Below are positions 1 to 44,903 of a DNA stretch of 44,903 nucleotides, one piece after another. The notes below the pieces were generated by a model, which ran no database searches, was not told the origin of the DNA, and saw only the letters and a list, made by a program, of their open reading frames with translations. Position numbers and translations under genes: made by a program. Origin of the DNA: a virus (Duplodnaviria > Heunggongvirae > Uroviricota > Caudoviricetes); the IMG/VR virus record IMGVR_UViG_2718217885_000015. The stretch is one strand, 5' to 3'. Position 1 is the first letter of the stretch. Each line of letters starts with the position of its first letter.

Positions 1-588
1 TTACGTAACGTCAAACGCTCGAATTGATCCCAAATCCTCCAGTGTATTTAACGCATCTTTCATCTCACGCTGACGCTGATAAATCTCATCGTTGCGATCG
101 ACCTGCGCCTGCGCCATCGCTGCAGCCAGCCCCTCAAGTTCCAGCATCGACAGTTTCACCTTCTGATTATCAGCGTCACCCCACACCATAACATCCCGTG
201 CAGTGTAGGATTTCGCCGATATCACCACCGGATAAAGACGGGCTAGTGAGTCGGGGCCTGCGTTCCAGGTGTGACCGTTCCATTCGAACGTGAACGACAG
301 TGCTTCCTGTTCTGTACGCCATGCCTCAATTTCCCGCCTTTTGGCATCCTTTGCCGCTGCAATAAGTTCAGGCGTGACGGTGAACGGGGCGATTTCGCCC
401 CATTTCCCGCTTTGCAGCTCCTGCCAGACATGCTGGCCTGTCGGGGCCATATCATCCTGTATGGCAGTATACAGGGCGAACTCCGTTTCACCTTCAAATA
501 ACACCTCGCAGTCAACCGCACCATTTTCAAGATAATGTGCGTTTCTGATGCCTTTCACCGCTCTGATTTTCATGTCTGATTTCCTCAT
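1..588 (-). CDS. tfa: Tail fibre assembly protein (Tfa-like chaperone)
   Basis: 195-aa ORF immediately downstream of J on the minus strand; its ATG overlaps the J stop by 1 nt (TAATG); size and position match lambda Tfa-type chaperones. Stop codon at 1-3, so complete. Confidence 0.8.
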   Translation of the reverse strand: MRKSDMKIRAVKGIRNAHYLENGAVDCEVLFEGETEFALYTAIQDDMAPTGQHVWQELQSGKWGEIAPFTVTPELIAAAKDAKRREIEAWRTEQEALSFTFEWNGHTWNAGPDSLARLYPVVISAKSYTARDVMVWGDADNQKVKLSMLELEGLAAAMAQAQVDRNDEIYQRQREMKDALNTLEDLGSIRAFDVT

Positions 589-3500
589 TACTCAATGCGT
601 ACAAAAAGACCGATAAAGCCACGCTGAGTACCATAATTGTTACCCAGGCCCGAAAGCGCCGTGTAACGACCGGGGAAGTTGTATTCACCGGCACCGCCAA
701 TCACAACCTGCGGTGAGGATGCGTATGTCCCTGTATCACTAACCTGTGCACTCATGGCCAGAGGACCAAGACGGGAACCCGGCACAGTATCACCGAGTCC
801 CAGAGAAGCATTTTCACCAAAACTTTCTCCCTGATATACCGCCATAATCGGCACACCGACGGCCGGGTATTGGTAATATGAGAACGGACCATTACCGGCG
901 GTTGAGGACATCAGATATGCCAGGGAGTTGCCGTCATACACAATAAGGCTTGATGTTGCATTCCAGCTGTTACCACTGTAGCGATAACGCATACAATGTA
1001 TGCTGTGCTCATCCTCGTAATACTGGTTGTAGTACAGCAGCGTTTTGAATTTACGCGCTGAGTCTGAACCATCGTTATCAGAGGGTGACCACATCACATC
1101 AATGATACCGTTAAATTTCGTGGTGCCCACCAGCAGCGTGGAGGAGTCCGCAATACTGACCGCATAACGCCCCGGGGTGACTGTCTGCAGCCATATAACG
1201 AAATCAGCCTGTCCGTTAAATGACAGAGCTTCGGCGCTGGTGAATGCCTGTCCAAACCCATACATCCCGGACAGGGCCAGCCTGCCCGGTGTGCGGTCAC
1301 GGATATCACTCTGGGGTTCCATCGTCGCAGCCGCGCTCAGCTCAAGCTCCGTGCGCATGGCTTCAGCCGTGTCATGCGCCAGCAATGCGCGGCCCTTCTC
1401 TGACAGCAGAGACAGTGAGGCATTCCCGTCCGTATTGAAGTACAGAAGATTATCTGCCCGTTGCGTCAGTGCGCTGATTGCCGTTAAGACGTCATTAAGC
1501 GGTTGTTTGCCTGCCAGCGCGTTTGTGATTGTCGTCGCAAAGTTCGGGTCATTGCCCAGCGCCGCTGCCAGCTCGTTCAGGGTGTCCAGAACTTCCGGCG
1601 ATGAGCCAACCAGCGCAGCAAGCAGTTTGCGCACAAACGCTGCGTTCGCTGCTTCCAGACCGGCGGCATCATCCGGTGGGGTTGGGGTGGTTGGGGTGCC
1701 GGTGAAGGCCGGGCTGTCCAGTGGCGCTTTTGTTTTCGTCTCGTCCATGACGGTTTTGACAGCCTTTGGCGTGGCAGCCAGTTCCTCGCTGTCGTTGTCC
1801 GTATCACTACACAGTTGCACCAGACCTTTTTCTGTCGTGGAGGCATTTGTTGCATTCAGGTCATCAACTATCTGCTGCGCCTCATCCCTGTACTGTTTCG
1901 CTTCCTGCGCATTGTCTGCACCTGCATCCTGGCTGGCTTTAGCCTGTCGGGCGTATTCAGCGGCGCTGTTTTCATGCCCGAGTGCAGCATTTGCTGCATT
2001 TTCCGCGCTGGTTGCAGCTGATGATGCGGCATTATGATAAAGGCGGGCACGTTCGGCGGCATCGACTGATTCGTCCCGCGCTGTGCCTGATGACTGTGCG
2101 CTGTTTTCTGTCTCCCCGATTTTTTGGGTCACTTCAGCAATATCACTCTCTATCTGCTGATTGATCTCATCCTCCAGTTGCTCAACTTCACTGCGCAATG
2201 CCGAGGCATTAATACGATCGTTCAGCTCCTGCCCCAGCAGGGTGCTGTTTATTTTCCCTTCAAAAAAATTGAGATACACCTCAGCATCGTTACCCGGCTG
2301 GCCAACAGCCTCCACAAATGCCGATTTGCCGACGGTATTCACACTGCGAACGTAAAAATAATAATTATTGCCCGGCTCAATATCCGGTCCGGAGGCTATC
2401 CAGTACAGCGCCGTACCAAGATAGCGGGCTGTGGTTTCAACCTGCCTGATATCGATAATCCGCTTTTCCGATAACCAGAACTCAAACTGTACCGTCGGGT
2501 CATATACAGCCAGTTTCGGGACCGCCGTTATCTGAAAATACCCCGGTATCAGTTCAATAGTGACAGGCGCTGCCGGTGCCGCAATCCGGAACGATACCGA
2601 CGCCGGATCACCCTGCTGCCCCCGGGCATTTACCGCCCGGACCGTCAGCATATAACGCCCCAGCGCCAGTTGTCTGAAGCGGTATGTGGTTTCCGTCGTC
2701 CGGGCTGTGCTGACCAGCCGCTCACTGCCGTCGTCCGCTGCCACGGTCAGGCGAAGCATGAAGCTCACGCCCTTCACCACCTTCGGCGTGTCCCAGCGGG
2801 CCAGTACCTGATACTCCCCGCTGTCTGCGGTGACTTCGGCGGTAAGGTGCTGCACCGCTGGCGGTGTGACACCATTCACCGTGCCGCTCTGGTCGCCGTC
2901 AAAGTGCGCCCCGTTATCCACGATGGCTTCTTTTTCCGGTACATGCTGCACGGCAGTGATGGCATACGTGCCGTCGTCGTTCTCACGGATACTCACGCAG
3001 CGGAACAGGCGCTGGCGCAGCGTCGGCAGCTTCAGCCCCCACACGCTGTATTCGGCAACGCCGTCAGGAACACGGCTCACTTTCACCTTCATGCCGTCGG
3101 TGACGGACTGAACCTCCACGCTGACCGGATTGCCATTTCCGTCAACCAGGCTTATCAGCGTGGTGCCGGAGGATGGCAGCGTGATTTCACGGTCGAGCGT
3201 CAGCGTCCGGGTCTGGCTGTTCACCGCCAGCACACGACCACCGGTGCTGATACCGGCATAGTCATCATCACAGATTTCAATAACATCGCCCGGTACATGG
3301 CGAAGCCCTTCGGCACCCACGCTGAAGTCCACGGTCTGCGTTTCCAGCAGTTCCGTTTTAATCAGCCACAGCCCGGCGCGGTGCGCCTGCCCCCGGCTGG
3401 TACAGCCAAAGGCATCCATCTTCGTGACGTTACGACCGTAACGGGCAATGGCCTGCGTGTCCTCCACAAGCTCTGTTGCCGTCTCCCAGCCGTTGTCCGG

Positions 3501-4715
3501 GTCAATCCAGTTCACCTCAACGGCATTATGGCGGTCCTTCAGGGCGCTGAAGCTGTAGCGGAACGGCGCGCCATCATCCGGCATCACCACATTACTGCGG
3601 TTATAGGTCCACACCTTATCTGATGGTCGGTCCTGCACGAACGTCAGCGTCTGCCCGTTCCATACCGGCATACAGCGCATCGCCGAGCAGAAATCACTGA
3701 GCACATCCCACGCCTTGCGCTGTGTGGTCAGGTACGCATTACAGGTGATGCGCGGCTCCGTGCCGCCAAAACCGTCCGGCACCGACTGATCGCAATGCTG
3801 GCCGATGACATACAGCGCCCATTTGTCCACATCCGCCGCACCAAGACGTTTCCCCATGCCGTAGCGCGGATGGGTCAGCATATCCCACAGACACCAGGCC
3901 GGGTTGTTGCTGTATGCCGGCTTAAACGTTCCGTCCCAGATACCGCTGTATTGCCGCGTCTGCGGGTTATAGTTCGACGGCACCTGCAGAATGCGCCCGC
4001 GCAGATGATAATTACGGCTCACCTGCTGGCTGCCGAACTGCTCCGAATCCACCTGCACGCCGACCAGTGCCGTGTTCGGGTAGCACTGTTTCACATCGAT
4101 GATTTCAGTGTATGACGACCAGAGCGTTTTGTTCTGCAGCTGGTCTGTGGTGCTGTCCGGCGTCATCCTGCGCATCCGTATATTGAACGGGCGCGGCGGC
4201 AGGTTACCCACCACCACCGAGGCCAGATACTGCGAGGTGGTTTTGCCCTTAATGGTGATGTCTTTTTCCGTCACCCAGCCACCATTACGCTGGATCTGAA
4301 CCAGCAGGCGGACTTCCGACGGATTCCGGTCCCCCTTTGAGGTGGTTTCCACCAGTGCCTGCACACCGAAGGTAAAGCGCAGACGGTCAATGTTTGCAGA
4401 TGTGATGGTCCGGGTGATCGGCGTGTCGTATTTCACTTCCGTACCCAGCACCGTCTCGGAACCGGAGGATTCAAATCCCTCCGGCGGTGCCTGCTCCTGC
4501 TCACCTGCCCGGAACACGACCGTGACACCGGAGATGTTGGTATTCCCCTCAGTGTCCAGCACCGGCGTACTGTTCAGCAGCACGCTTTTTAATCCATCCA
4601 CCGGACCTTCAATCGGCCCTTCGCTGATGGCATCAATCACACTCAGTAACTGCGTGGACTTCAGGTTGTCCTTCGCTTCGCGCGGGGTATGCCCCTTACT
4701 GCTGCCTTTACCCAT
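588..4715 (-). CDS. J: Host specificity / central tail fibre protein J, with a side-tail-fibre-like C-terminal region
   Basis: 1375 aa; the first ~800 residues align with lambda J as I recall it (e.g. [21 protein letters not shown]); the C-terminal ~550 aa carry a conserved tail-fibre motif (TEKGLVQL...AATPKAVK...[13 protein letters not shown]) and a Gly/Tyr-rich distal region instead of the lambda J C-terminus. Confidence 0.9.
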
Positions 4716-4775
4716 TCCTCACGCTCCATAAACGACAAAACCGCCCGCAGGCGGTTTCACATAAAACATTTTGCA

Positions 4776-5447
4776 TCAGCGACCAATCACCACAACCTGA
4801 CCACCGTCCCCCTCGTCTGCCGTGCTGATCTCCTGAGAAGCCACCCGCGACCCCACGCGCATTTCACCGTACAGAACAGGCAGAACATTGCCCTGGGCAA
4901 CCATGTTATCCAGTGAGGAGAAATAGGTGTTCTGCTTACCGTTATCCGTTGTCTGTGTACGGGGAGTTCTGGCTTTCGGTGCCAGCATCTGCGCCACACC
5001 ACCAAGTACCATACTGGCACCGAGAGAAAACAGGATACCGGTCATACCACCGGCCCCAATGGCTGCCCCCCATGCTGCAAGGGTGGCTCCGGCAGTAAAG
5101 AATGATCCGGCAATGGCGGCAGCCCCCAGGACAATCTGGAATACGCCACCTGACTTGGCCCCGGCGACTCTGGGAACAATATGAATCACAGCGCCGTCAG
5201 GCAGAACCTCATGTAACTGCGCCGTCAATCCGGACGTGCTGACGTCCCGCCCGGAAATCCGTACCTGATACCAGCCGTCGCTCAGTTTCTGACGAAACGC
5301 CGGGAGCTGTGTGGCCAGCGCCCGGATGGCTTCGGCCCCCGTTTTCACACGCAGATCGATGCGGCGGCCAAATCGTTGTAAATCCCCGTAAAGGCAGATG
5401 CGTGCCATGCCTGGTGACGCCAGAGGGAGTGTGTGCGTCGCTGCCAT
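4776..5447 (-). CDS. I: Tail assembly protein I
   Basis: 223 aa, near-identical to recalled lambda I (MAATHTLPLASPGMARICLYGDLQRFGRR...); overlaps the 3' end of K as in lambda. Confidence 0.9.
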   Translation of the reverse strand: MAATHTLPLASPGMARICLYGDLQRFGRRIDLRVKTGAEAIRALATQLPAFRQKLSDGWYQVRISGRDVSTSGLTAQLHEVLPDGAVIHIVPRVAGAKSGGVFQIVLGAAAIAGSFFTAGATLAAWGAAIGAGGMTGILFSLGASMVLGGVAQMLAPKARTPRTQTTDNGKQNTYFSSLDNMVAQGNVLPVLYGEMRVGSRVASQEISTADEGDGGQVVVIGR

Positions 5448-6792: not shown

Positions 6793-7121
6793 CAGTTCAC
6801 CACCTGTTCAAACTCTGCGCTGAACTCAACACGCAGCATACTGACCCGCGACGACCATTTTGCGCAGGTCACCTTTATCTGCCGCCACTCATAAGGCGGC
6901 GTCCACAGAAAGGCTTTCCAGCCCCCGTGCTCAGCCAGAAACGACTCCAGCGCCGTGGCCTCCTCACGGGAGACAGACAGCGTCACGCTGTACGTTTTCA
7001 GGTCAGCGTTCAGCCCGGCAGGCGCTCGCTGGGAATAGCCATCACCAAAGCGCACTTTCCTGACGGAAGGGGCCGAAACCACATCCATACCGGGTTTCAC
7101 TTTCCAGCGGAAGGTTTTCAT
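6792..7121 (-). CDS. M: Minor tail protein M
   Basis: 109 aa, lambda M-like, between H and L. Confidence 0.9.
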   Translation of the reverse strand: MKTFRWKVKPGMDVVSAPSVRKVRFGDGYSQRAPAGLNADLKTYSVTLSVSREEATALESFLAEHGGWKAFLWTPPYEWRQIKVTCAKWSSRVSMLRVEFSAEFEQVVN

Positions 7122-9697
7122 CGTCCACCTCCGGAGAACAGGCCACCATCACGCATCTGTGTCTGAATTTCATCACGGGCACCCTTGCGGGCCATGTCAT
7201 ACACTGCCTTCATCATCTGTGGACCTGGCAGACCATTCGTACCGTCGTTCTGAATCACCACGTGATTGTTCTGATTAAAATTAATGCCTTCAGCCCGCCG
7301 CATCTGCGCCGGACTTCCGGCACCGCCCACATAACCACCTTCCGCATAGCCCCGCATCAGGCGGTACAGGTTGCCGACACCAATCCGGCTGGTTGCCTCC
7401 TTCGTGAAGACAAATTCACCACGGTGAACAATCCCCGCTGGCTCATATTTGCCGCCGGTTCCTGTGAATCCTCCGGTTGCAAAATGGAATTTCGCCGCAG
7501 CGGCCTGAATGGCTGTACCGCCTGACGCGGATGCGCCACCACCAACAGCCCCGCCAATGGCGCTGCCGATACTCCCGACAATCCCCACCATTGCCTGCTT
7601 AAGCAGAATTTCTGTCATCATGGACAGCACGGAACGGGTGAAGCTGCGCCAGTTCTGCTCACTGCCGGTCAGCATCGCCGCCATATTCTGTGCAATACCA
7701 TCAAAGGTCTGCGTGGCTGCACTTTTTACCTGCGACATACTGTCCGTGGCGCTCTCTTTCCACTCGCTCCAGCCGGACCTGAGGCCTGCCATCCAGCTCC
7801 CGCGAAGCTGGTCTTCAGCCGCCCAGGTCTTTTTCTGCTCTGACATGACGTTATTCAGCGCCAGAGGATTATCGCCATACTGTTCCTTCAGGCGCTGTTC
7901 CGTGGCTTCCCGTTCTGCCTGCCGGTCAGTCAGCCCCCGGCTTTTCGCATCAATGGCGGCCCGTTTTGCCCGTTGCTGCTGTGCGAATTTATCCGCCTGC
8001 TGCGCCAGCGCGTTCAGGCGCTCCTGATACGTAACCTTGTCGCCAAGTGCAGCCAGCTGGCGTTTGTACTCCAGCGTCTCATCTTTATGCGCCAGCAGGG
8101 ATTTCTCCTGTGCAGACAGCTGGCGACGTTGCGCCGCCTCCTCCAGTACCGCGAACTGACTCTCCGCCTTCCACAAATCCCGGCGCTGCTGGCTGATTTT
8201 CTCATTTGCTCCGGCATGCTTCTCCAGCGTCCGGAGTTCTGCCTGAAGCGTCAGCAGGGCAGCATGAGCACTGTCTTCCTGACGATCGCCCGCAGACACC
8301 TTCACGCCGGACTGTTTCGGCTTTTTCAGCGTCGCTTCATAATCCTTTTTCGCCGCCGCCATCAGCGTGTTGTAATCCGCCTGCAGAATTTTCCCGTCTT
8401 TCAGTGCCTTATTCAGCTCTTCCTGACGGGCGGTATATTTCTCCAGTGGCGTCAGCAGGCGCTCATACGCCTTCTGCGCCTCTCCGGTATACTTCAGCTG
8501 TGACGCCTCACGCTCAGCCCGGTCCCTTGCCACCAGTTCACCGGCTTTTTCCATATCCGACTGCAGCGTGGCTGCCGCCAGCCCCAGACGGGCATTTTCA
8601 CGGTCATCCCATGCACCCTGAAGGTTGGCACGGAAAGAGGAGGTCTTTCCCCGGCGCTGACTCCGGCTCTGGTACCACTGCCATTTTTTATCCGCCTCAT
8701 CAAATGCCTTCTGCGCACTGGCGAGCATATCCGCTGAGGATTCAGGACGACCGATATCCAGGATGGCATCCCACATCAATTTGAATGCCTTCCCGGTTTT
8801 ATCCGCCCAGGTTTCCAGCGTCCCCATGTTTTCTTTCAGGCGACGGGTCTGCTCATCAAAGCCTTTTGTGGCGATATCGTTCGCCGCCTGTAAGGCCCCT
8901 GCCTCATCCCCCGAACGCTGCAGCTGCGCAACATACGCAATCTGCTCTGCCGTCACGTTACGGAACTGGCGCGCCATAGCCATCAGTCCCGACGTCGGGT
9001 CGGTGGTCAGCTTTCCAAAAGCCTCTGCAACCTTGTCCACTTCCACACCGGATGCAGAAGCAAAACGCGCCACACTCTGGTTGATGGCATCAAACTGTTC
9101 ACCACCACGCACACCGGCATTCACCAGGGCTGCCAGTGACTCGCTCGCCTGGTTAAACGTCAGCCCTGCTGCCTGTCCGGCTCTGGAGAGCGTCAGCATG
9201 CGATCGGCAGTCAGTCCGGACTGATTACCGGAAAGAACCAGGGTTTTATTAAACGCTGAAAGCGTGGAATCCCCCTGGTACCAGGCATACGCCAGCGCAC
9301 CTGTCGCCACCGCCAGCGAGGTGACCCCGACCATCGGCAGGGTGATCGCACCGGCAAGCCCCCTGAACATGGGGATCATCCCGCCGAAGGCGTCCTTCAC
9401 CTGACCGCCCTGTTGCAGCAGGATCAGCCAGGGATTCTGACCACCGGCAAGCTGCGTGGCGATATCCGTAAACTGTGCAGGCAGGGTACGCATGGCCGCT
9501 TTATACTGCCCGACGGAAATCCCGGCTTTTTGTGCAGCCAGCGCCTGACGGCTCAGGCCCTGTTCAACAGCACTGGCGGTTTTTCTGGCGTCGGTATCCA
9601 GTCCTGAAAAATGACGCCTTACCCGGCTTATCTGCTCATCGAAACGGACCGCATCCAGACTCAGGTCAATAACAAGATCACCAACCGGCTGGGACAT
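7118..9697 (-). CDS. H: Tail tape measure protein H
   Basis: 859 aa, coiled-coil-rich with a Gly-rich C-terminal region; located downstream of G/G-T as in lambda. Confidence 0.9.
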   Translation of the reverse strand: MSQPVGDLVIDLSLDAVRFDEQISRVRRHFSGLDTDARKTASAVEQGLSRQALAAQKAGISVGQYKAAMRTLPAQFTDIATQLAGGQNPWLILLQQGGQVKDAFGGMIPMFRGLAGAITLPMVGVTSLAVATGALAYAWYQGDSTLSAFNKTLVLSGNQSGLTADRMLTLSRAGQAAGLTFNQASESLAALVNAGVRGGEQFDAINQSVARFASASGVEVDKVAEAFGKLTTDPTSGLMAMARQFRNVTAEQIAYVAQLQRSGDEAGALQAANDIATKGFDEQTRRLKENMGTLETWADKTGKAFKLMWDAILDIGRPESSADMLASAQKAFDEADKKWQWYQSRSQRRGKTSSFRANLQGAWDDRENARLGLAAATLQSDMEKAGELVARDRAEREASQLKYTGEAQKAYERLLTPLEKYTARQEELNKALKDGKILQADYNTLMAAAKKDYEATLKKPKQSGVKVSAGDRQEDSAHAALLTLQAELRTLEKHAGANEKISQQRRDLWKAESQFAVLEEAAQRRQLSAQEKSLLAHKDETLEYKRQLAALGDKVTYQERLNALAQQADKFAQQQRAKRAAIDAKSRGLTDRQAEREATEQRLKEQYGDNPLALNNVMSEQKKTWAAEDQLRGSWMAGLRSGWSEWKESATDSMSQVKSAATQTFDGIAQNMAAMLTGSEQNWRSFTRSVLSMMTEILLKQAMVGIVGSIGSAIGGAVGGGASASGGTAIQAAAAKFHFATGGFTGTGGKYEPAGIVHRGEFVFTKEATSRIGVGNLYRLMRGYAEGGYVGGAGSPAQMRRAEGINFNQNNHVVIQNDGTNGLPGPQMMKAVYDMARKGARDEIQTQMRDGGLFSGGGR

Positions 9698-11322: not shown

Positions 11323-11718
11323 TCACATCTCGTATGTAATGGAATAAGTCAGATCTGCAGAACTCCACAATGCCATATCGTCATCACGACGATAGTCATA
11401 GCCCTGCGTAACCATCGTGGTAATCATGCCTGCCAGTGCAGGGATCGCCGCCATCGCCGGGTAAATCCGGCTTTCCATCCACTGATCAAGCTCTGAATCC
11501 GGTACCTGTGCCGGTAAAAACACCTCAATATGCAGTGTGGCCCGCCAGGTATCTGCATCCAGCTCTTCACCGGTATACTCTGCATCCGTCAGATAAACCG
11601 CGACCGCGGGAAAATCCTCTTCGTCAAAAACAACGGGGCGACCATCAAACAGCGTCGCCCCGTGTTCATGCTGCTCCAGTGCATCCAGCACTGCAGCACG
11701 GATATCAGTATGTTTCAT
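11323..11718 (-). CDS. U: Tail terminator protein U
   Basis: 131 aa, lambda U-like. Confidence 0.9.
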
Positions 11719-12249
11719 CGTTTTATCGCAATCCTCAGTTGTTGTTTCAGCGCATATGCCAGTTCTCCGGGCAGGCGTTCACGCCGGATACGGTCAACGT
11801 TTTCATCAAACGCCTGTTTCAGTGGGGCCGCCATCGGGATTTTCACCACATCAATGGGGTAACGGTTTTTCCCGGCCACACGCTGCATTACATGCCAGCG
11901 ACCATTTTTTAATCGCTGAATAAATGCCCGCTGATAACGATGCTGACCGGCTTTGAGTATGCTGTTCGGACGACGGCCCAGCATCCTGATCCCCAGCTTA
12001 ATCACCGGGAGATCACCGCGTTTAACGATAATTTTGGCATTCGGATTTCTGACCGTGGCCCGTTTCAGTCTGGACCGTTCCTTTACCAGTTTCCGGCTCA
12101 CCCTGGTCTCCCGGGCAACCTGTGGACGAAGACTGATTAATCGCCGTTGTGGCCACGCGGTTAATGGCCATTGCTGAAGCCGCCGGAATGGCGTTTTTAC
12201 GAACCCGGCTCAGATTTTCAATCGCCTGATCAAGCCCTTTTATCGCCAT
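11715..12249 (-). pseudogene. Z: Tail completion protein Z, disrupted by a single-base frameshift
   Basis: The N-terminal 43 codons (MAIKGLDQAIENLSR...INQSSS, from 12249) and the C-terminal part (...QVARETRVSRKLVKER... to 11715) both match lambda Z but sit in different frames; the frames switch at about 12121-12126, consistent with a 1-nt insertion. Confidence 0.7.
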
Positions 12250-26467: not shown

Positions 26468-26544
26468 TGGCGCGTTGTACTGGATTCGAACCAGTGACCG
26501 ATTGCTTAGAAGGCAATTGCTCTGTCCGACTGAGCTAACAACGC
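26468..26544 (-). tRNA. argO: tRNA-Arg (anticodon UCU)
   Basis: Folded by hand: acceptor GCGTTGT/ACAACGC, D-arm GCTC/GAGC, anticodon stem ATTGC/GCAAT with loop CTTCTAA, T-arm ACTGG-TTCGAAT-CCAGT, encoded CCA; 77 nt. Confidence 0.85.
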
Positions 26545-26645: not shown

Positions 26646-26721
26646 TGGTGGCCCTTGCTGGATTTGAACCAGCGACCTGGCGATTATGAGTCGCTCGCTC
26701 TCACCACTGAGCTAAAGGGCC
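26646..26721 (-). tRNA. ileZ: tRNA with anticodon CAU (Ile2/lysidine-type or Met; ileZ-like position)
   Basis: Acceptor GGCCCTT/AAGGGCC, anticodon loop CTCATAA, T-arm GCTGG-TTCAAAT-CCAGC, CCA encoded; 76 nt. Confidence 0.85.
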
Positions 26722-39435: not shown

Positions 39436-39972
39436 ATGTCATTTATTAAAACTTTTTCCGGGAAGCATTTTTATTATGACAAGATAAATAAAGACGACAT
39501 CGTGATTAACGATATCGCGGTTTCCCTTTCAAATATCTGCCGCTTTGCCGGTCATCTTTCTCACTTCTACAGTGTCGCCCAACATGCGGTGCTTTGCAGC
39601 CAGCTGGTGCCGCAGGAATTTGCTTTTGAAGCGTTAATGCATGATGCAACAGAAGCGTATTGCCAGGACATTCCCGCACCACTGAAACGCCTTCTTCCTG
39701 ACTATAAACGGATGGAAGAAAAAATAGACGCCGTAATCCGTGAGAAATACGGGTTACCCCCAGTTATGAGTACACCCGTGAAATATGCCGATCTCATCAT
39801 GCTGGCAACCGAACGCCGCGATCTCGGGCTTGATGATGGCTCTTTCTGGCCTGTACTGGAAGGCATCCCGGCAACAGAGATGTTCAACGTGATTCCACTG
39901 GCACCGGGCCATGCCTACGGGATGTTTATGGAACGCTTCAACGAGTTATCGGAATTACGCAAATGTGCATAA
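39436..39972 (+). CDS. HD-domain phosphohydrolase (YfdR-like 5'-deoxynucleotidase)
   Basis: 178 aa from MSFIKTF (GGAGA ribosome-binding site); HD-type metal-binding residues (H...HD...D) in FAGHLSHFYSVAQHAVLCS...MHDATEAY. Confidence 0.7.
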   Translation: MSFIKTFSGKHFYYDKINKDDIVINDIAVSLSNICRFAGHLSHFYSVAQHAVLCSQLVPQEFAFEALMHDATEAYCQDIPAPLKRLLPDYKRMEEKIDAVIREKYGLPPVMSTPVKYADLIMLATERRDLGLDDGSFWPVLEGIPATEMFNVIPLAPGHAYGMFMERFNELSELRKCA

Positions 39973-40841
39973 CTCATGTAGTTAGTTTTTCTGGCGGGAG
40001 AACATCCGCATATCTTGTTCACCTGATGGAAGAACAAAGAAAGGCTGGCAATAACGTCTGCTACATCTTTATGGATACCGGTTGCGAACATCCGCTGACA
40101 TACCGCTTTATCCGGGAGGTTGTGAAGTTCTGGGACATACCACTAACTGTGTTACAGGTCGATATAAATCCTGAGCTTGGGCAGCCAAATGGTTATACAG
40201 AATGGGAGCCAAAGGATATTCAGACACGAATGCCGGTGCTTAAACCGTTTATGGACATGGTTAAAAAGTACGGTACGCCATACATCGGCGGCGCGTTCTG
40301 TACTGACAGGCTAAAACTCATCCCTTTCACGAAATACTGCGATAACCATTTCGGGCGAGGTAATTACATCACATGGCTGGGTATTCGTGCAGACGAACCC
40401 CGTAGGCTGAAACCGAAATCGGGCGTCCGGTATCTTGCCGAGCTGTCAGATTTTGATAAGTCGGATGTTATCCGGTGGTGGCGAAAACAACCTTTTGATT
40501 TGCAAATCCCGGAGCATCTCGGGAACTGTGTTTTCTGCATCAAAAAGTCAACGCAAAAGCTGGGGCTTGCATGTAAAGACGAACCAGGTCTGATGCGAGT
40601 TTTTAATGAGCTGGTTACAGGCAAACACGTCAGGGATGGTCATCGCAGAACAGGTAAAGACATTATGTACCGTGGTCACCTGACGCTTGACGGAATTGCC
40701 AGAATGTCTGCCAACAGCGACTACAGAAATTTGTATCAGGCGATGGTACAGGACAGGCGATTCGATACCGGCTCGTGTTCAGAGTCATGTGAAATCTGGG
40801 GTGATCAATTGGAATTGGAATTCGAAGAGGTAGGGGTATGA
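39963..40841 (+). CDS. PAPS-reductase-family (PP-loop ATP pyrophosphatase) protein
   Basis: 292 aa; N-terminal PP-loop VSFSGGRTS; C-terminal Cys cluster (CVFCIKKS...CSESC); translationally coupled to the next ORF (ATGA overlap). Confidence 0.75.
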   Translation: MCITHVVSFSGGRTSAYLVHLMEEQRKAGNNVCYIFMDTGCEHPLTYRFIREVVKFWDIPLTVLQVDINPELGQPNGYTEWEPKDIQTRMPVLKPFMDMVKKYGTPYIGGAFCTDRLKLIPFTKYCDNHFGRGNYITWLGIRADEPRRLKPKSGVRYLAELSDFDKSDVIRWWRKQPFDLQIPEHLGNCVFCIKKSTQKLGLACKDEPGLMRVFNELVTGKHVRDGHRRTGKDIMYRGHLTLDGIARMSANSDYRNLYQAMVQDRRFDTGSCSESCEIWGDQLELEFEEVGV

Positions 40842-41916: not shown

Positions 41917-43512
41917 ATGGCTGAAGCAGCAAAAAAAACTCCACAAAAGCTGAATGAAAAAAAAGGCTCAACATCGGCATCATCACTTGAGATTGTGAAT
42001 TCACGACAATCAAAAGATATTTATCTTGGATTGTGTGGATATGTTGGATGTGGCATGAGAACGATAAACAAAATTATCGAAGAGATATCCAAAGAATGGG
42101 GGTATAATGTTGTACACATCCGCATAAGTGCGCTTATGGAAAACCCATTATATTTTGAGCCAGCAGCACTGAAGGTATCCGAAAGCACACAAGTTAATAG
42201 ACATTTAAAACTCCAGGATATTGCCAATAAACTTCGTAAACATTACAAAAAAAATGAGTTGCTTGCAGAAGCTGCTATTGCAGCAATCGCAGCAGAGAAA
42301 AATAATATTGATTATAATAATGATGAATATAAAGGTACTGTCTTCATCATTGATCAATTCAAAAGGCCGGAAGAAATAGAGTTATTCAGAGTTATATATC
42401 AGCATAATTTCTATTTGTTAGGAGTTTTGCGCGATTTAGATTACCGAATTCCGAATCTCATTGATGACGAATCGACAAAGAACGACCTTCATTTAATTAT
42501 CAATATTGATAATAAATCCTCTGATCCGTATGGACAAAGAACCGGGGAGACCATTCTTGATTCAGATTTTTTTATTAAAAATAACTTCAGCCAAAAAAGT
42601 GAATTAAAGAAGAAGATTGATCGGTTTTTCGGTCTTATTCATGGCAAAAATGGTTTAACACCAACTTTTAACGAGAAAGGTATGTATGCTGCCTTTTCAA
42701 CATCATTACAATCAGCTTGTTTATCACGTCAAGTAGGGGCTGCACTGTTTGATGATGAAGGGAATTTGCTTGCCGTGGGTAAGAACGACGTACCTAAAGC
42801 TGGTGGCGGGTTGTATAGCAGTGATGATTTTGATAACGATCATCGATGCGTTCACAAAAGTGGTAAGTGTTATAATGATGCAAACAAGCTAAAAATTAAA
42901 GACCGTATAAAAAGCATATTATCAACCGAAGTAAGAACTGTATTAGGTATTTCCGCAGGACAAACTGTTGCCGATATTAATATAACACGACTTCTAAACA
43001 AATTAGATAATATTGCAGAAGGCATTTACAAAGACAGCAAAATATCAAGTGTAATGGAGTACTCCAGATCAATTCATGCTGAAATGGACGTCATTACATC
43101 AATGGCTAGAAAACAAAACGGCGATACTAAAGATAAAATTCTTTTTACGACAACCTATCCCTGCCACAACTGTGCAAGGCATATTGTCGCAGCTGGAATA
43201 AAAAAAGTAGTATATATAGAGCCATTTGATAAAAGCCTTGCTCTTGATCTGCATAATGATGCAATAACAAAGAACGAAGAATCTTCCAAAGTAATATTTT
43301 GTGATTTTGAGGGGGTATCACCCCGCCGCTACCATAAATTTTTTAGACCAACGGATGAACGTAAAGATGATAAAACAGGGGCTGCAAATAAATTTAATGC
43401 TCGCTACAAAAATCATATAGATGTTCAATATCTTGATGATTATAGAAAGTATGAGACTGTTGTAGCTAAGAAATTTATAAACGAGATTGCTAAACCAGAG
43501 TCTCAGCCATAA
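41917..43512 (+). CDS. Two-domain deoxycytidylate/dCTP deaminase-like protein (AvcD/DcdV-like): N-terminal kinase-like region plus C-terminal CMP/dCMP deaminase domain
   Basis: 531 aa; C-terminal zinc-binding deaminase signature HAEMDVI...(26 aa)...PCHNCARHIVAAGIKKVVYIEP, preceded by ACLSRQVGAALFDDEGNLLAVGKND; N-terminal glycine-rich GLCGYVGCGMRT and Walker-B-like VFIIDQF; markedly AT-rich against the flanking phage DNA. Confidence 0.7.
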   Translation: MAEAAKKTPQKLNEKKGSTSASSLEIVNSRQSKDIYLGLCGYVGCGMRTINKIIEEISKEWGYNVVHIRISALMENPLYFEPAALKVSESTQVNRHLKLQDIANKLRKHYKKNELLAEAAIAAIAAEKNNIDYNNDEYKGTVFIIDQFKRPEEIELFRVIYQHNFYLLGVLRDLDYRIPNLIDDESTKNDLHLIINIDNKSSDPYGQRTGETILDSDFFIKNNFSQKSELKKKIDRFFGLIHGKNGLTPTFNEKGMYAAFSTSLQSACLSRQVGAALFDDEGNLLAVGKNDVPKAGGGLYSSDDFDNDHRCVHKSGKCYNDANKLKIKDRIKSILSTEVRTVLGISAGQTVADINITRLLNKLDNIAEGIYKDSKISSVMEYSRSIHAEMDVITSMARKQNGDTKDKILFTTTYPCHNCARHIVAAGIKKVVYIEPFDKSLALDLHNDAITKNEESSKVIFCDFEGVSPRRYHKFFRPTDERKDDKTGAANKFNARYKNHIDVQYLDDYRKYETVVAKKFINEIAKPESQP

Positions 43513-43664: not shown

Positions 43665-44903
43665 TTATTCAATAGGCTGTCTGTTGGAACCTAAATTAGT
43701 GTAAGTAAGAATCGAATCAACCCTATCCCACCATGCCTGATAGGCTTTACGCTGTTCTTCTAGATAATCGCTCTTATCATAAACTTGCCATACCCCTGGC
43801 AGTTTATGACCGAGCATTATTTCAGCAATATGAGGCGCAGTAAGATCAGAAAAGTTTGTTCGTGCTGTTCGTCTCAAATCATGAAGAGACCAATGAGGAA
43901 ATTGATACCCCAAACGCCGCCATGCGTACTGCATTAAATTGTAAGGCAGCGACTGCAATGATGTCCGACCAACTGGCTCCTTGCTTCCTTCCTTGGTAAA
44001 AAGCATATCGGAACCGTTGTTCATAGAGATAACGTATTTTATAAGCTCTTCAACCGGTTCAATAATGGGGCGCTTTAGCGGTTCGCCTGTTATATCACCT
44101 GTCTTATGTCGTTCTGGCGGTACAGTCCATACCTTATTAATGAAATCAAAATCATCCATCCTGGCAGTAATCAGCTCTGAACTACGACAGCCGAAATGCA
44201 GCAATAGTTTAATGAAGGCCCGGTATTTGGGAACCATTCGAGAACCATCGATCGCAGCATAAAGGATTTTAATTTCATCGTGTGTCAGAAACCGTTTCTT
44301 CTGACCTTTACGGATATCCATATCTTTACCCGTGATATCCGACAGAGGGCGAGTTTCAATGAGCTTTCTCTTATACGCCCAGACATGGGCCTGCTTTGCG
44401 TTAATTAGCAATCGGTCTGCTATTGCTGGAGTCTTAGTGCTAAGAGGCTCCAGGACCTCTAACCAATCATGCAATGTAGCTACATCGTGAGGGATAATCC
44501 CGATTTTAGAGAACAGGTGCAGTTCAAATGAGCGGAGTATCTGCTCAGAACCTTTTTTATTTTTTACACAATATGCGTCATACCAGGCACGGATCACAGA
44601 CTCCACCGTCATGGCTTCAGTAGCTTTGCGTTTTTCTGCCTGCTTGACCAATCGTGGATTGCGGTTTGACTCGAGTTCACCACGAAGACGGATAACTTCT
44701 TCTCTGGCCTCTTTTAGTCCAGTTGCCGGGTAAGTTCCGATATCAAGACGCTCACCTTTCCCTGCCCATTGATAACGATATTGGAACACTACGCGACCTT
44801 TCGGTGATACTCTGACAGACAGACCATCCCGATCTGATTTAACCAAAACCTTATCACGTTCCTTTCCAACGACTGAACGCAACCACGCATCAGAAAGCGC
44901 CAT
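43665..44903 (-). CDS. int: P4-type tyrosine integrase
   Basis: 412 aa; N-terminal MALSDAWLRS...GLSVRVSPKGRVVFQYRYQW typical of P4-family integrases; C-terminal catalytic region (HDLRRT...GH...Y); ATG at the last base of the window, so complete but with no upstream sequence. Confidence 0.9.
   Translation of the reverse strand: MALSDAWLRSVVGKERDKVLVKSDRDGLSVRVSPKGRVVFQYRYQWAGKGERLDIGTYPATGLKEAREEVIRLRGELESNRNPRLVKQAEKRKATEAMTVESVIRAWYDAYCVKNKKGSEQILRSFELHLFSKIGIIPHDVATLHDWLEVLEPLSTKTPAIADRLLINAKQAHVWAYKRKLIETRPLSDITGKDMDIRKGQKKRFLTHDEIKILYAAIDGSRMVPKYRAFIKLLLHFGCRSSELITARMDDFDFINKVWTVPPERHKTGDITGEPLKRPIIEPVEELIKYVISMNNGSDMLFTKEGSKEPVGRTSLQSLPYNLMQYAWRRLGYQFPHWSLHDLRRTARTNFSDLTAPHIAEIMLGHKLPGVWQVYDKSDYLEEQRKAYQAWWDRVDSILTYTNLGSNRQPIE

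Follow-up and report, generated by a model that had tools for sequence, protein, structure and literature searches.

In phage lambda, the signal triggered by LamB binding runs from the receptor-binding domain of the tail-tip protein gpJ through a beta-prism fibre to the helical shaft and the FNIII domains, and opens the tail tube (PMC11101478). [quoted passage not shown] We analysed a 44,903-nucleotide E. coli lambdoid prophage sequence (Caudoviricetes; IMG/VR record IMGVR_UViG_2718217885_000015; hereafter the window), in which the genes for these two proteins form one long open reading frame (ORF), J::Stf. Sequence comparison essentially shows that this hybrid J gene is the product of one microhomology deletion within the prophage, and not of acquisition from a foreign phage. 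The hybrid is probably a decay lesion of very recent date, unselected and in frame by chance.

Architecture of the fused gene

The fusion and its parts occupy the following positions of the window:

588-4715, minus strand: J::Stf fusion ORF of 1375 amino acids, identical to WP_420480800.1 'phage tail protein'
2109-4715, minus strand: J-derived part, codons 1-869, comprising the hub domains, FNIII-A, Ig_J (FNIII-1), Ig_J_second (FNIII-2) and the first ~50 amino acids of the helical shaft; 100% identical to gpJ of E. coli 09-00049
2109-2252, minus strand: J-derived helical shaft segment, amino acids 822-869, with no nucleotide-level match to lambda J; from a J allele of 1232 amino acids with an extended coiled coil
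2100-2110, no strand assigned: deletion junction, an 11-nucleotide microhomology (coding strand CAGAAAACAGC) in codons 870-872 (Glu-Asn-Ser), common to parental J and parental stf
591-2099, minus strand: Stf-derived part, codons 873-1375 (Stf 194-696), with an Ala-rich helical region, a Phage_fiber_2 repeat, a conserved fibre shaft and a predicted receptor-binding tip; identical to stf of 09-00049
1722-1841, minus strand: Phage_fiber_2 repeat (PF03406), amino acids 959-998 (Pfam, 1e-15)
591-1040, minus strand: Gly/Tyr-rich C-terminal tip, amino acids 1226-1375, 24.7% Gly plus Tyr; this tip module occurs on other fibre N-termini too

The original prediction had described the J protein as a chimera, whose distal ~550 amino acids do not match the lambda J C-terminus and end in a Gly/Tyr-rich tip, and the comparisons bear this out. 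Amino acids 1-849 of the fusion are 92% identical to lambda J (1132 amino acids), and beyond amino acid 849 BLASTP gave no significant match of the fusion to lambda J. At the nucleotide level, the lambda-like J similarity ends at window positions 2249-2263 (megablast, 50,697 phage records). The distal 545 amino acids are of side-tail-fibre type: their best PHROG is 2636, 'tail fiber protein' (5e-115), and their tblastn matches include Rac-SA53 tail3, SerU-LTIIb stf, P2 gpH and Gifsy Stf proteins. Only conserved shaft motifs are held in common with lambda orf-401/orf-314 (Stf), and a PDB sequence search likewise returned only such motifs, in the 9d93 tail collar fibre and the Mu fibre protein S. 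Gly and Tyr account for 24.7% of the final 150 amino acids, compared with 11.3% in the J part. Two details of the prediction need correction. The boundary had been placed at position 2225, whereas the true J/Stf junction lies at 2100-2110 and the stretch 2109-2252 is still J-derived. A conserved tail-fibre N-domain motif had also been proposed for the distal part; a fibre motif is indeed present there, the Phage_fiber_2 repeat, but the real N-terminal domain of Stf (PF08400) is absent.

All four lambda J hub and FNIII families (PF24801, PF13550, PF24421 and PF24489) were found in the fusion with Pfam E-values of 1e-34 to 1e-43, the mapped domains being FNIII-A_GpJ (86-207), Phage-tail_3 (330-498), Ig_J (610-714) and Ig_J_second (716-818). 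Pfam detected neither Phage_Tail_Tip (PF09327, the central straight fibre) nor Ig_GpJ_C (PF12421, the C-terminal receptor-binding Ig domain) in the fusion, nor phage_tail_N (PF08400, the attachment or collar domain at the N-terminus of Stf). The NCBIfam model lambda_TipJ (NF049904) scores 1832 bits against a cutoff of 1950, with model positions 1-861 of 1163 covered; because of this partial, subthreshold match, the protein is named merely 'phage tail protein' in RefSeq. An AlphaFold2 monomer of amino acids 801-1375 was poor (mean pLDDT 51), and with that model Foldseek returned nothing from the PDB at E <= 0.001. In the same low-confidence model, both segments that meet at the junction are predicted to be helical. 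Whatever the register, the Ala-rich Stf segment obtained low values in a home-made heptad score computed over the junction.

Homologues of the tip module (window 591-1598) also follow N-termini with PF08400, with PF12571 (tail-collar fibre) or with PF03406 alone, and occur in phages with tails of the baseplate-J type, such as Rac-SA53 and Actinobacillus phage pPE4. Many tip fragments are named 'shikimate transporter, partial' in public records, which is apparently a propagated misannotation.

Origin and distribution of the fusion

Comparison with 5,426 complete E. coli genomes identified a sister prophage in E. coli 09-00049 (NZ_CP015228.1). Its locus, as annotated, lies next to prfC and reads DUF4376 – stf (696 amino acids) – Lom – gpJ (1232 amino acids) – I – K – L, where stf is annotated as 'prophage tail fiber N-terminal domain-containing protein'. 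Window positions 1-2118 are 99.9% identical to the DUF4376 gene and the 3' three-quarters of this separate fibre gene, and positions 2100-4800 are 100% identical to the 5' part of gpJ and to gene I. Over its full length the window aligns to the 09-00049 chromosome in two collinear blocks, 1-2118 and 2100-44903, with 99.9% identity, which flank the deleted segment and together reach from the stop codon of the DUF4376 gene to the start codon of the integrase gene: the window is the 09-00049 prophage minus 2,393 bp.

In the junction alignment, the switch from stf to J sequence falls inside GCTGTTTTCTG. The fusion protein has an identical prefix of 872 amino acids with parental J and an identical suffix of 506 amino acids with parental Stf. 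Both parents carry Glu-Asn-Ser at the crossover (J ...IGETENS|LTQL, Stf ...AGEAENS|AQSS), and J codon 872 is joined in frame to stf codon 194. No exact direct repeat between J and lom-stf is longer than the shared 11-mer, and just one other is as long, whereas shuffled sequence is expected to yield about three; judged by these counts, it is an ordinary chance-level microhomology and not a specialised recombination site.

What J lost comprises the rest of the helical shaft, the beta-prism tip fibre (Phage_Tail_Tip, amino acids 945-1073 of parental J) and the receptor-binding domain (Ig_GpJ_C, 1102-1232). Besides this 3' part of J, the deletion took the entire lom gene, the collar or attachment domain of Stf (PF08400, phage_tail_N, amino acids 1-134 of parental Stf) and the first part of the Stf coiled coil. 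With lambda J 840-1131 the deleted J segment shares 55% identity, and the parent was therefore a lambda-type J with ~100 extra helical-shaft residues, the breakpoint lying inside this extra shaft. The ancestral gene order was the usual one of lambda, J – lom – stf – DUF4376, as preserved almost base for base in 09-00049, and J and stf were fused when the 2,393 bp between the two copies of CAGAAAACAGC were lost by an illegitimate, microhomology-mediated deletion.

The original prediction had instead read the chimera as a host-range module swap, in which recombination with a foreign phage replaced the C-terminus of J. Tail-fibre modules are famously mosaic, and the tip module occurs with N-termini of several kinds (PF08400, PF12571, bare PF03406) as well as in phages of different tail type. 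However, each half of the fusion matches one of two neighbouring genes, J and stf, in the sister strain's copy of the prophage with 100% identity, exactly the intervening J 3' end, lom and stf 5' end are missing, and homology at the join amounts to just 11 nucleotides. The identity of both halves to the sister prophage led us to reject the swap, which is barely credible against an internal deletion of 2,393 bp. The reverse order of events, with the 09-00049 type derived from the fused form, would need a precise 2,393-bp insertion that restores three genes.

The junction itself is rare. It was found in none of the 5,426 complete E. coli genomes (best coverage 81%), and a separate stf gene is kept in all 18 of 18 close relatives. 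The 31-mer across the junction, ACTGTGCGCTGTTTTCTGTCTCCCCGATTTT, was not found in IMG/VR, GTDB representative genomes or JGI metagenomes. We found the exact fusion protein on one contig, a chromosome of 5.23 Mb, and it has a RefSeq and an older UniParc accession; an exact-protein contig look-up returned no record of the fusion. Homologue searches with a junction-spanning query of 295 amino acids retrieved, among the best matches, no second protein that combines J Ig domains with Phage_fiber_2; one of these searches is a weak negative, as clusters at 90% identity are often represented by fragments. Five candidates for further fusions (P0256, P0258, P0353, P0348 and P0368) were rejected, being ordinary J proteins with long helical spacers. 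In P0353, P0368 and P0348, 400-600 amino acids separate Ig_J_second from Phage_Tail_Tip, and the helical shaft of J is therefore highly variable in length. The lambda Stf motif 'GAGENS', a putative fusion point for engineering close to where this junction would lie, was looked for in the literature; nothing was found, and this lead was not used.

The exact protein on only one contig and the empty contig look-up would also fit an assembly or sequencing artefact, with the deletion absent from the real genome, as would the fact that lambdoid J genes are multi-copy and occur in 10 places in 09-00049. We consider this very improbable. The repeat of merely 11 nucleotides is too short for assembly collapse, which was rejected for that reason; the flanks are collinear with, and otherwise identical to, one prophage; and the carrier contig is a chromosome of 5.23 Mb whose fusion protein has entries in RefSeq and, earlier, in UniParc.

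The downstream candidate chaperone gene and the probable fate of the fusion protein

Directly downstream of the fusion lies a gene of fibre-chaperone type:

1-573, minus strand: DUF4376 protein of 190 amino acids, candidate fibre chaperone; the J::Stf stop codon is overlapped (TAATG) by another in-frame ATG further upstream, at 586-588
580-585, minus strand: GAGGAA, a Shine-Dalgarno-like motif 7 nucleotides before the ATG at 573, read from the sequence

This gene had been predicted to be a tfa chaperone whose start overlaps the stop codon of J. The overlap exists in the form of TAATG at 588, but the identical gene in RefSeq starts at the ATG at 573 (190 amino acids), behind GAGGAA. A fibre-chaperone-type gene is indeed present, but of another kind: its sole Pfam match is DUF4376 (PF14301, amino acids 73-177 of 190, 1.2e-15), and a BLASTP comparison with lambda Tfa (orf-194) gave no significant match. 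In Alteromonas phages, DUF4376 proteins that are encoded after fibre genes have a demonstrated role as chaperones of the fibres (PMC7289586, PMC10579305). The protein resembles chaperones of the Alteromonas phage V22 gp27 type in its C-terminal DUF4376 domain and its position directly after a fibre gene, so that a role as fibre chaperone, of a family other than Tfa, is a reasonable inference.

If the late operon were expressed, the fusion product would probably still be able to form the hub of the tail tip, since its hub and FNIII domains are all complete. Its single fibre would be a central trimer that consists of the distal two-thirds of Stf and folds with assistance from the DUF4376 chaperone, whose gene was kept, and the particle would have no side fibres. 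Efficient DNA ejection, however, is unlikely, because the receptor-binding domain and the beta-prism elements of the relay have been deleted. The function of the fusion protein was more likely lost than changed. The prediction of a receptor other than LamB holds in a trivial sense only: with the receptor-binding domain of J gone, any contact would be made through the Stf tip, and as the distal part of parental J is only 55% identical to its lambda counterpart, LamB use is not assumed for the parent either.

That the fusion is a recent decay lesion is suggested by the rarity of the junction, which has not spread, together with a second defect private to this prophage:

11715-12249, minus strand: gpZ-like tail gene, split into ORFs of 75 and 128 amino acids by a 1-nucleotide insertion (an extra C) at 12124

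In the otherwise identical 09-00049 prophage the gpZ-like protein has 177 amino acids, and the insertion was found in no complete E. coli genome (best identity 99.6%). Apart from the deletion, the fused gene has zero nucleotide differences from the 09-00049 prophage. An in-frame outcome of such a deletion had a prior chance of one in three.

Several observations weigh against a decay lesion. The gpZ insertion may be genuine, as a second lesion, or may stem from a sequencing error. The UniRef100 cluster of the fusion has 37 members, which may be further carriers or just fragments. The deletion joined, in frame, two segments that are predicted to be helical (at low confidence) and that both come from homotrimeric fibres (PMC11101478; PMC12617516); this in-frame helical join and the retained chaperone gene make a foldable fibre plausible. 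Natural J shafts vary widely, as the spacers of ~400-600 amino acids in P0353 and P0368 illustrate, engineered gpJ and Stf chimeras are functional (PMC11338833), and co-resident prophages can complement defective lambdoid prophages (PMC2669165).

Most of these points would equally fit a functional host-range variant, in which a J::Stf tail tip with a single central fibre mediates adsorption, and perhaps ejection, via the Stf receptor rather than a J-type porin. Besides the in-frame fusion with its complete hub and FNIII domains, the kept chaperone gene, the junction within helical regions of two trimeric fibres (in the low-confidence model; PMC11101478; PMC12617516), the differences of hundreds of residues among natural J shafts and the working engineered chimeras (PMC11338833), the reported Stf-dependent ejection of Gifsy-1 (PMC12312913) speaks for such a variant. 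We nevertheless regard it as unlikely. The beta-prism fibre and the receptor-binding domain, equivalent to lambda J 840-1132 and forming the relay to tail opening (PMC11101478), are deleted, whereas the engineered gpJ chimeras were joined at amino acid 964 and so retained the prism and relay parts (PMC11338833). The junction is in none of the searched collections, no other J plus Phage_fiber_2 architecture was found in the homologue searches, gpZ is frameshifted in the same prophage, and zero substitutions have accumulated since the event, so that there is no signal of selection. It is quite improbable that a viable lambda-like phage without side fibres or a J-type tip arose from the deletion in one step, a phage whose single central fibre is the distal part of Stf set straight onto the J hub and in which binding by an Stf-type tip suffices to open the tail without the relay. 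Were this true, the fusion would represent a natural one-step route for re-targeting a lambda-type tail, and would test the need for the distal fibre and receptor-binding domain of J in ejection, a question that matters for designing engineered delivery particles.

If the fusion is the decay lesion that we favour, it represents an ordinary, neat case of a short-microhomology deletion that makes a long chimeric ORF. Pipelines label such chimeric ORFs only 'phage tail protein', and the case cautions that a mosaic tail gene need not mean an exchange of host range.

Other prophage features and comparison with known systems

The window edges are the stop codon of the DUF4376 gene (position 1) and the start codon of the integrase gene (position 44903), and the attachment sites lie outside the window. 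In the sister genome, the equivalent of the window is the prophage gene block between yjjG and prfC. Of the 37 substitutions that distinguish the window from 09-00049, 34 cluster within ~900 bp (window 7538-8432) of the tape-measure gene H (7118-9697, minus strand), a pattern that suggests a short patch acquired by recombination with another lambdoid prophage. Two tRNA genes, for tRNA-Arg(TCT) and a tRNA with the anticodon CAT, are located on the minus strand at 26468-26544 and 26646-26721; the latter is a tRNA-Ile in RefSeq, and the sister prophage lists a third, 'tRNA-OTHER', between the two. The prophage also carries defence cargo:

41917-43512, plus strand: dCTP deaminase gene, anti-phage (PADLOC dCTPase, 3.8e-164), adjoining the integrase gene (43665-44903, minus strand)
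39963-40841, plus strand: PAPS-reductase/SspD-like ORF, further into the prophage

A protein of 1246 amino acids, P0276, has a tape-measure domain (TMP_2) at its N-terminus joined to the J domains that start with Phage-tail_3, and looks like another deletion-type fusion of tail genes in some prophage.

Among described proteins, lambda gpJ shares with the fusion its first 849 amino acids at 92% identity, with hub, FNIII-A, FNIII-1, FNIII-2 and the start of the alpha-helical shaft, and the position of its gene after I, K, L, M and H. It differs in that the fusion lacks Phage_Tail_Tip and Ig_GpJ_C, stays below the NCBIfam cutoff and carries 503 amino acids of Stf instead. The distal part shares with Stf of the Ur-lambda type the helical region, Phage_fiber_2, the 'ALAGKQP' shaft motifs, which are also present in lambda orf-401/orf-314, and a tip with a chaperone-type gene behind it. 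Unlike such an Stf, the fusion is without the PF08400 collar anchor (PMC12617516), and therefore cannot be a side fibre. The lambda Stf tip binds OmpC, and the tip of the fusion differs from it; likewise, the lambda Stf chaperone belongs to the Tfa family, whereas the chaperone-type gene here encodes a DUF4376 protein.

The long-shaft J proteins P0353 (1370 amino acids) and P0368 (1560 amino acids) are similar to the fusion in length and in the long helix after Ig_J_second, and phmmer aligns them across the junction region, but they end in Phage_Tail_Tip and not in Phage_fiber_2 and an Stf tip. The engineered gpJ and Stf chimeras of Brödel et al. 2024 (PMC11338833) likewise combine an N-terminal lambda part with a heterologous receptor-binding C-terminus, joined in the shaft. 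These, however, are J-to-J joins at amino acid 964 or Stf-to-fibre joins at amino acid 393 or 528. That study describes no side-fibre distal part on a J hub, and the natural join reported here, at J amino acid 872, removes the whole distal apparatus of J.

Like the defective lambdoid prophages that pathogenic E. coli carry (Asadulghani et al. 2009, PMC2669165), the prophage has deletions and frameshifts in morphogenesis genes and many related co-resident prophages, which could recombine with it or complement it, but its deletion yields a long in-frame hybrid of two receptor-binding proteins rather than a truncated pseudogene. The case is thus a variant of known tail-gene mosaicism and prophage decay.

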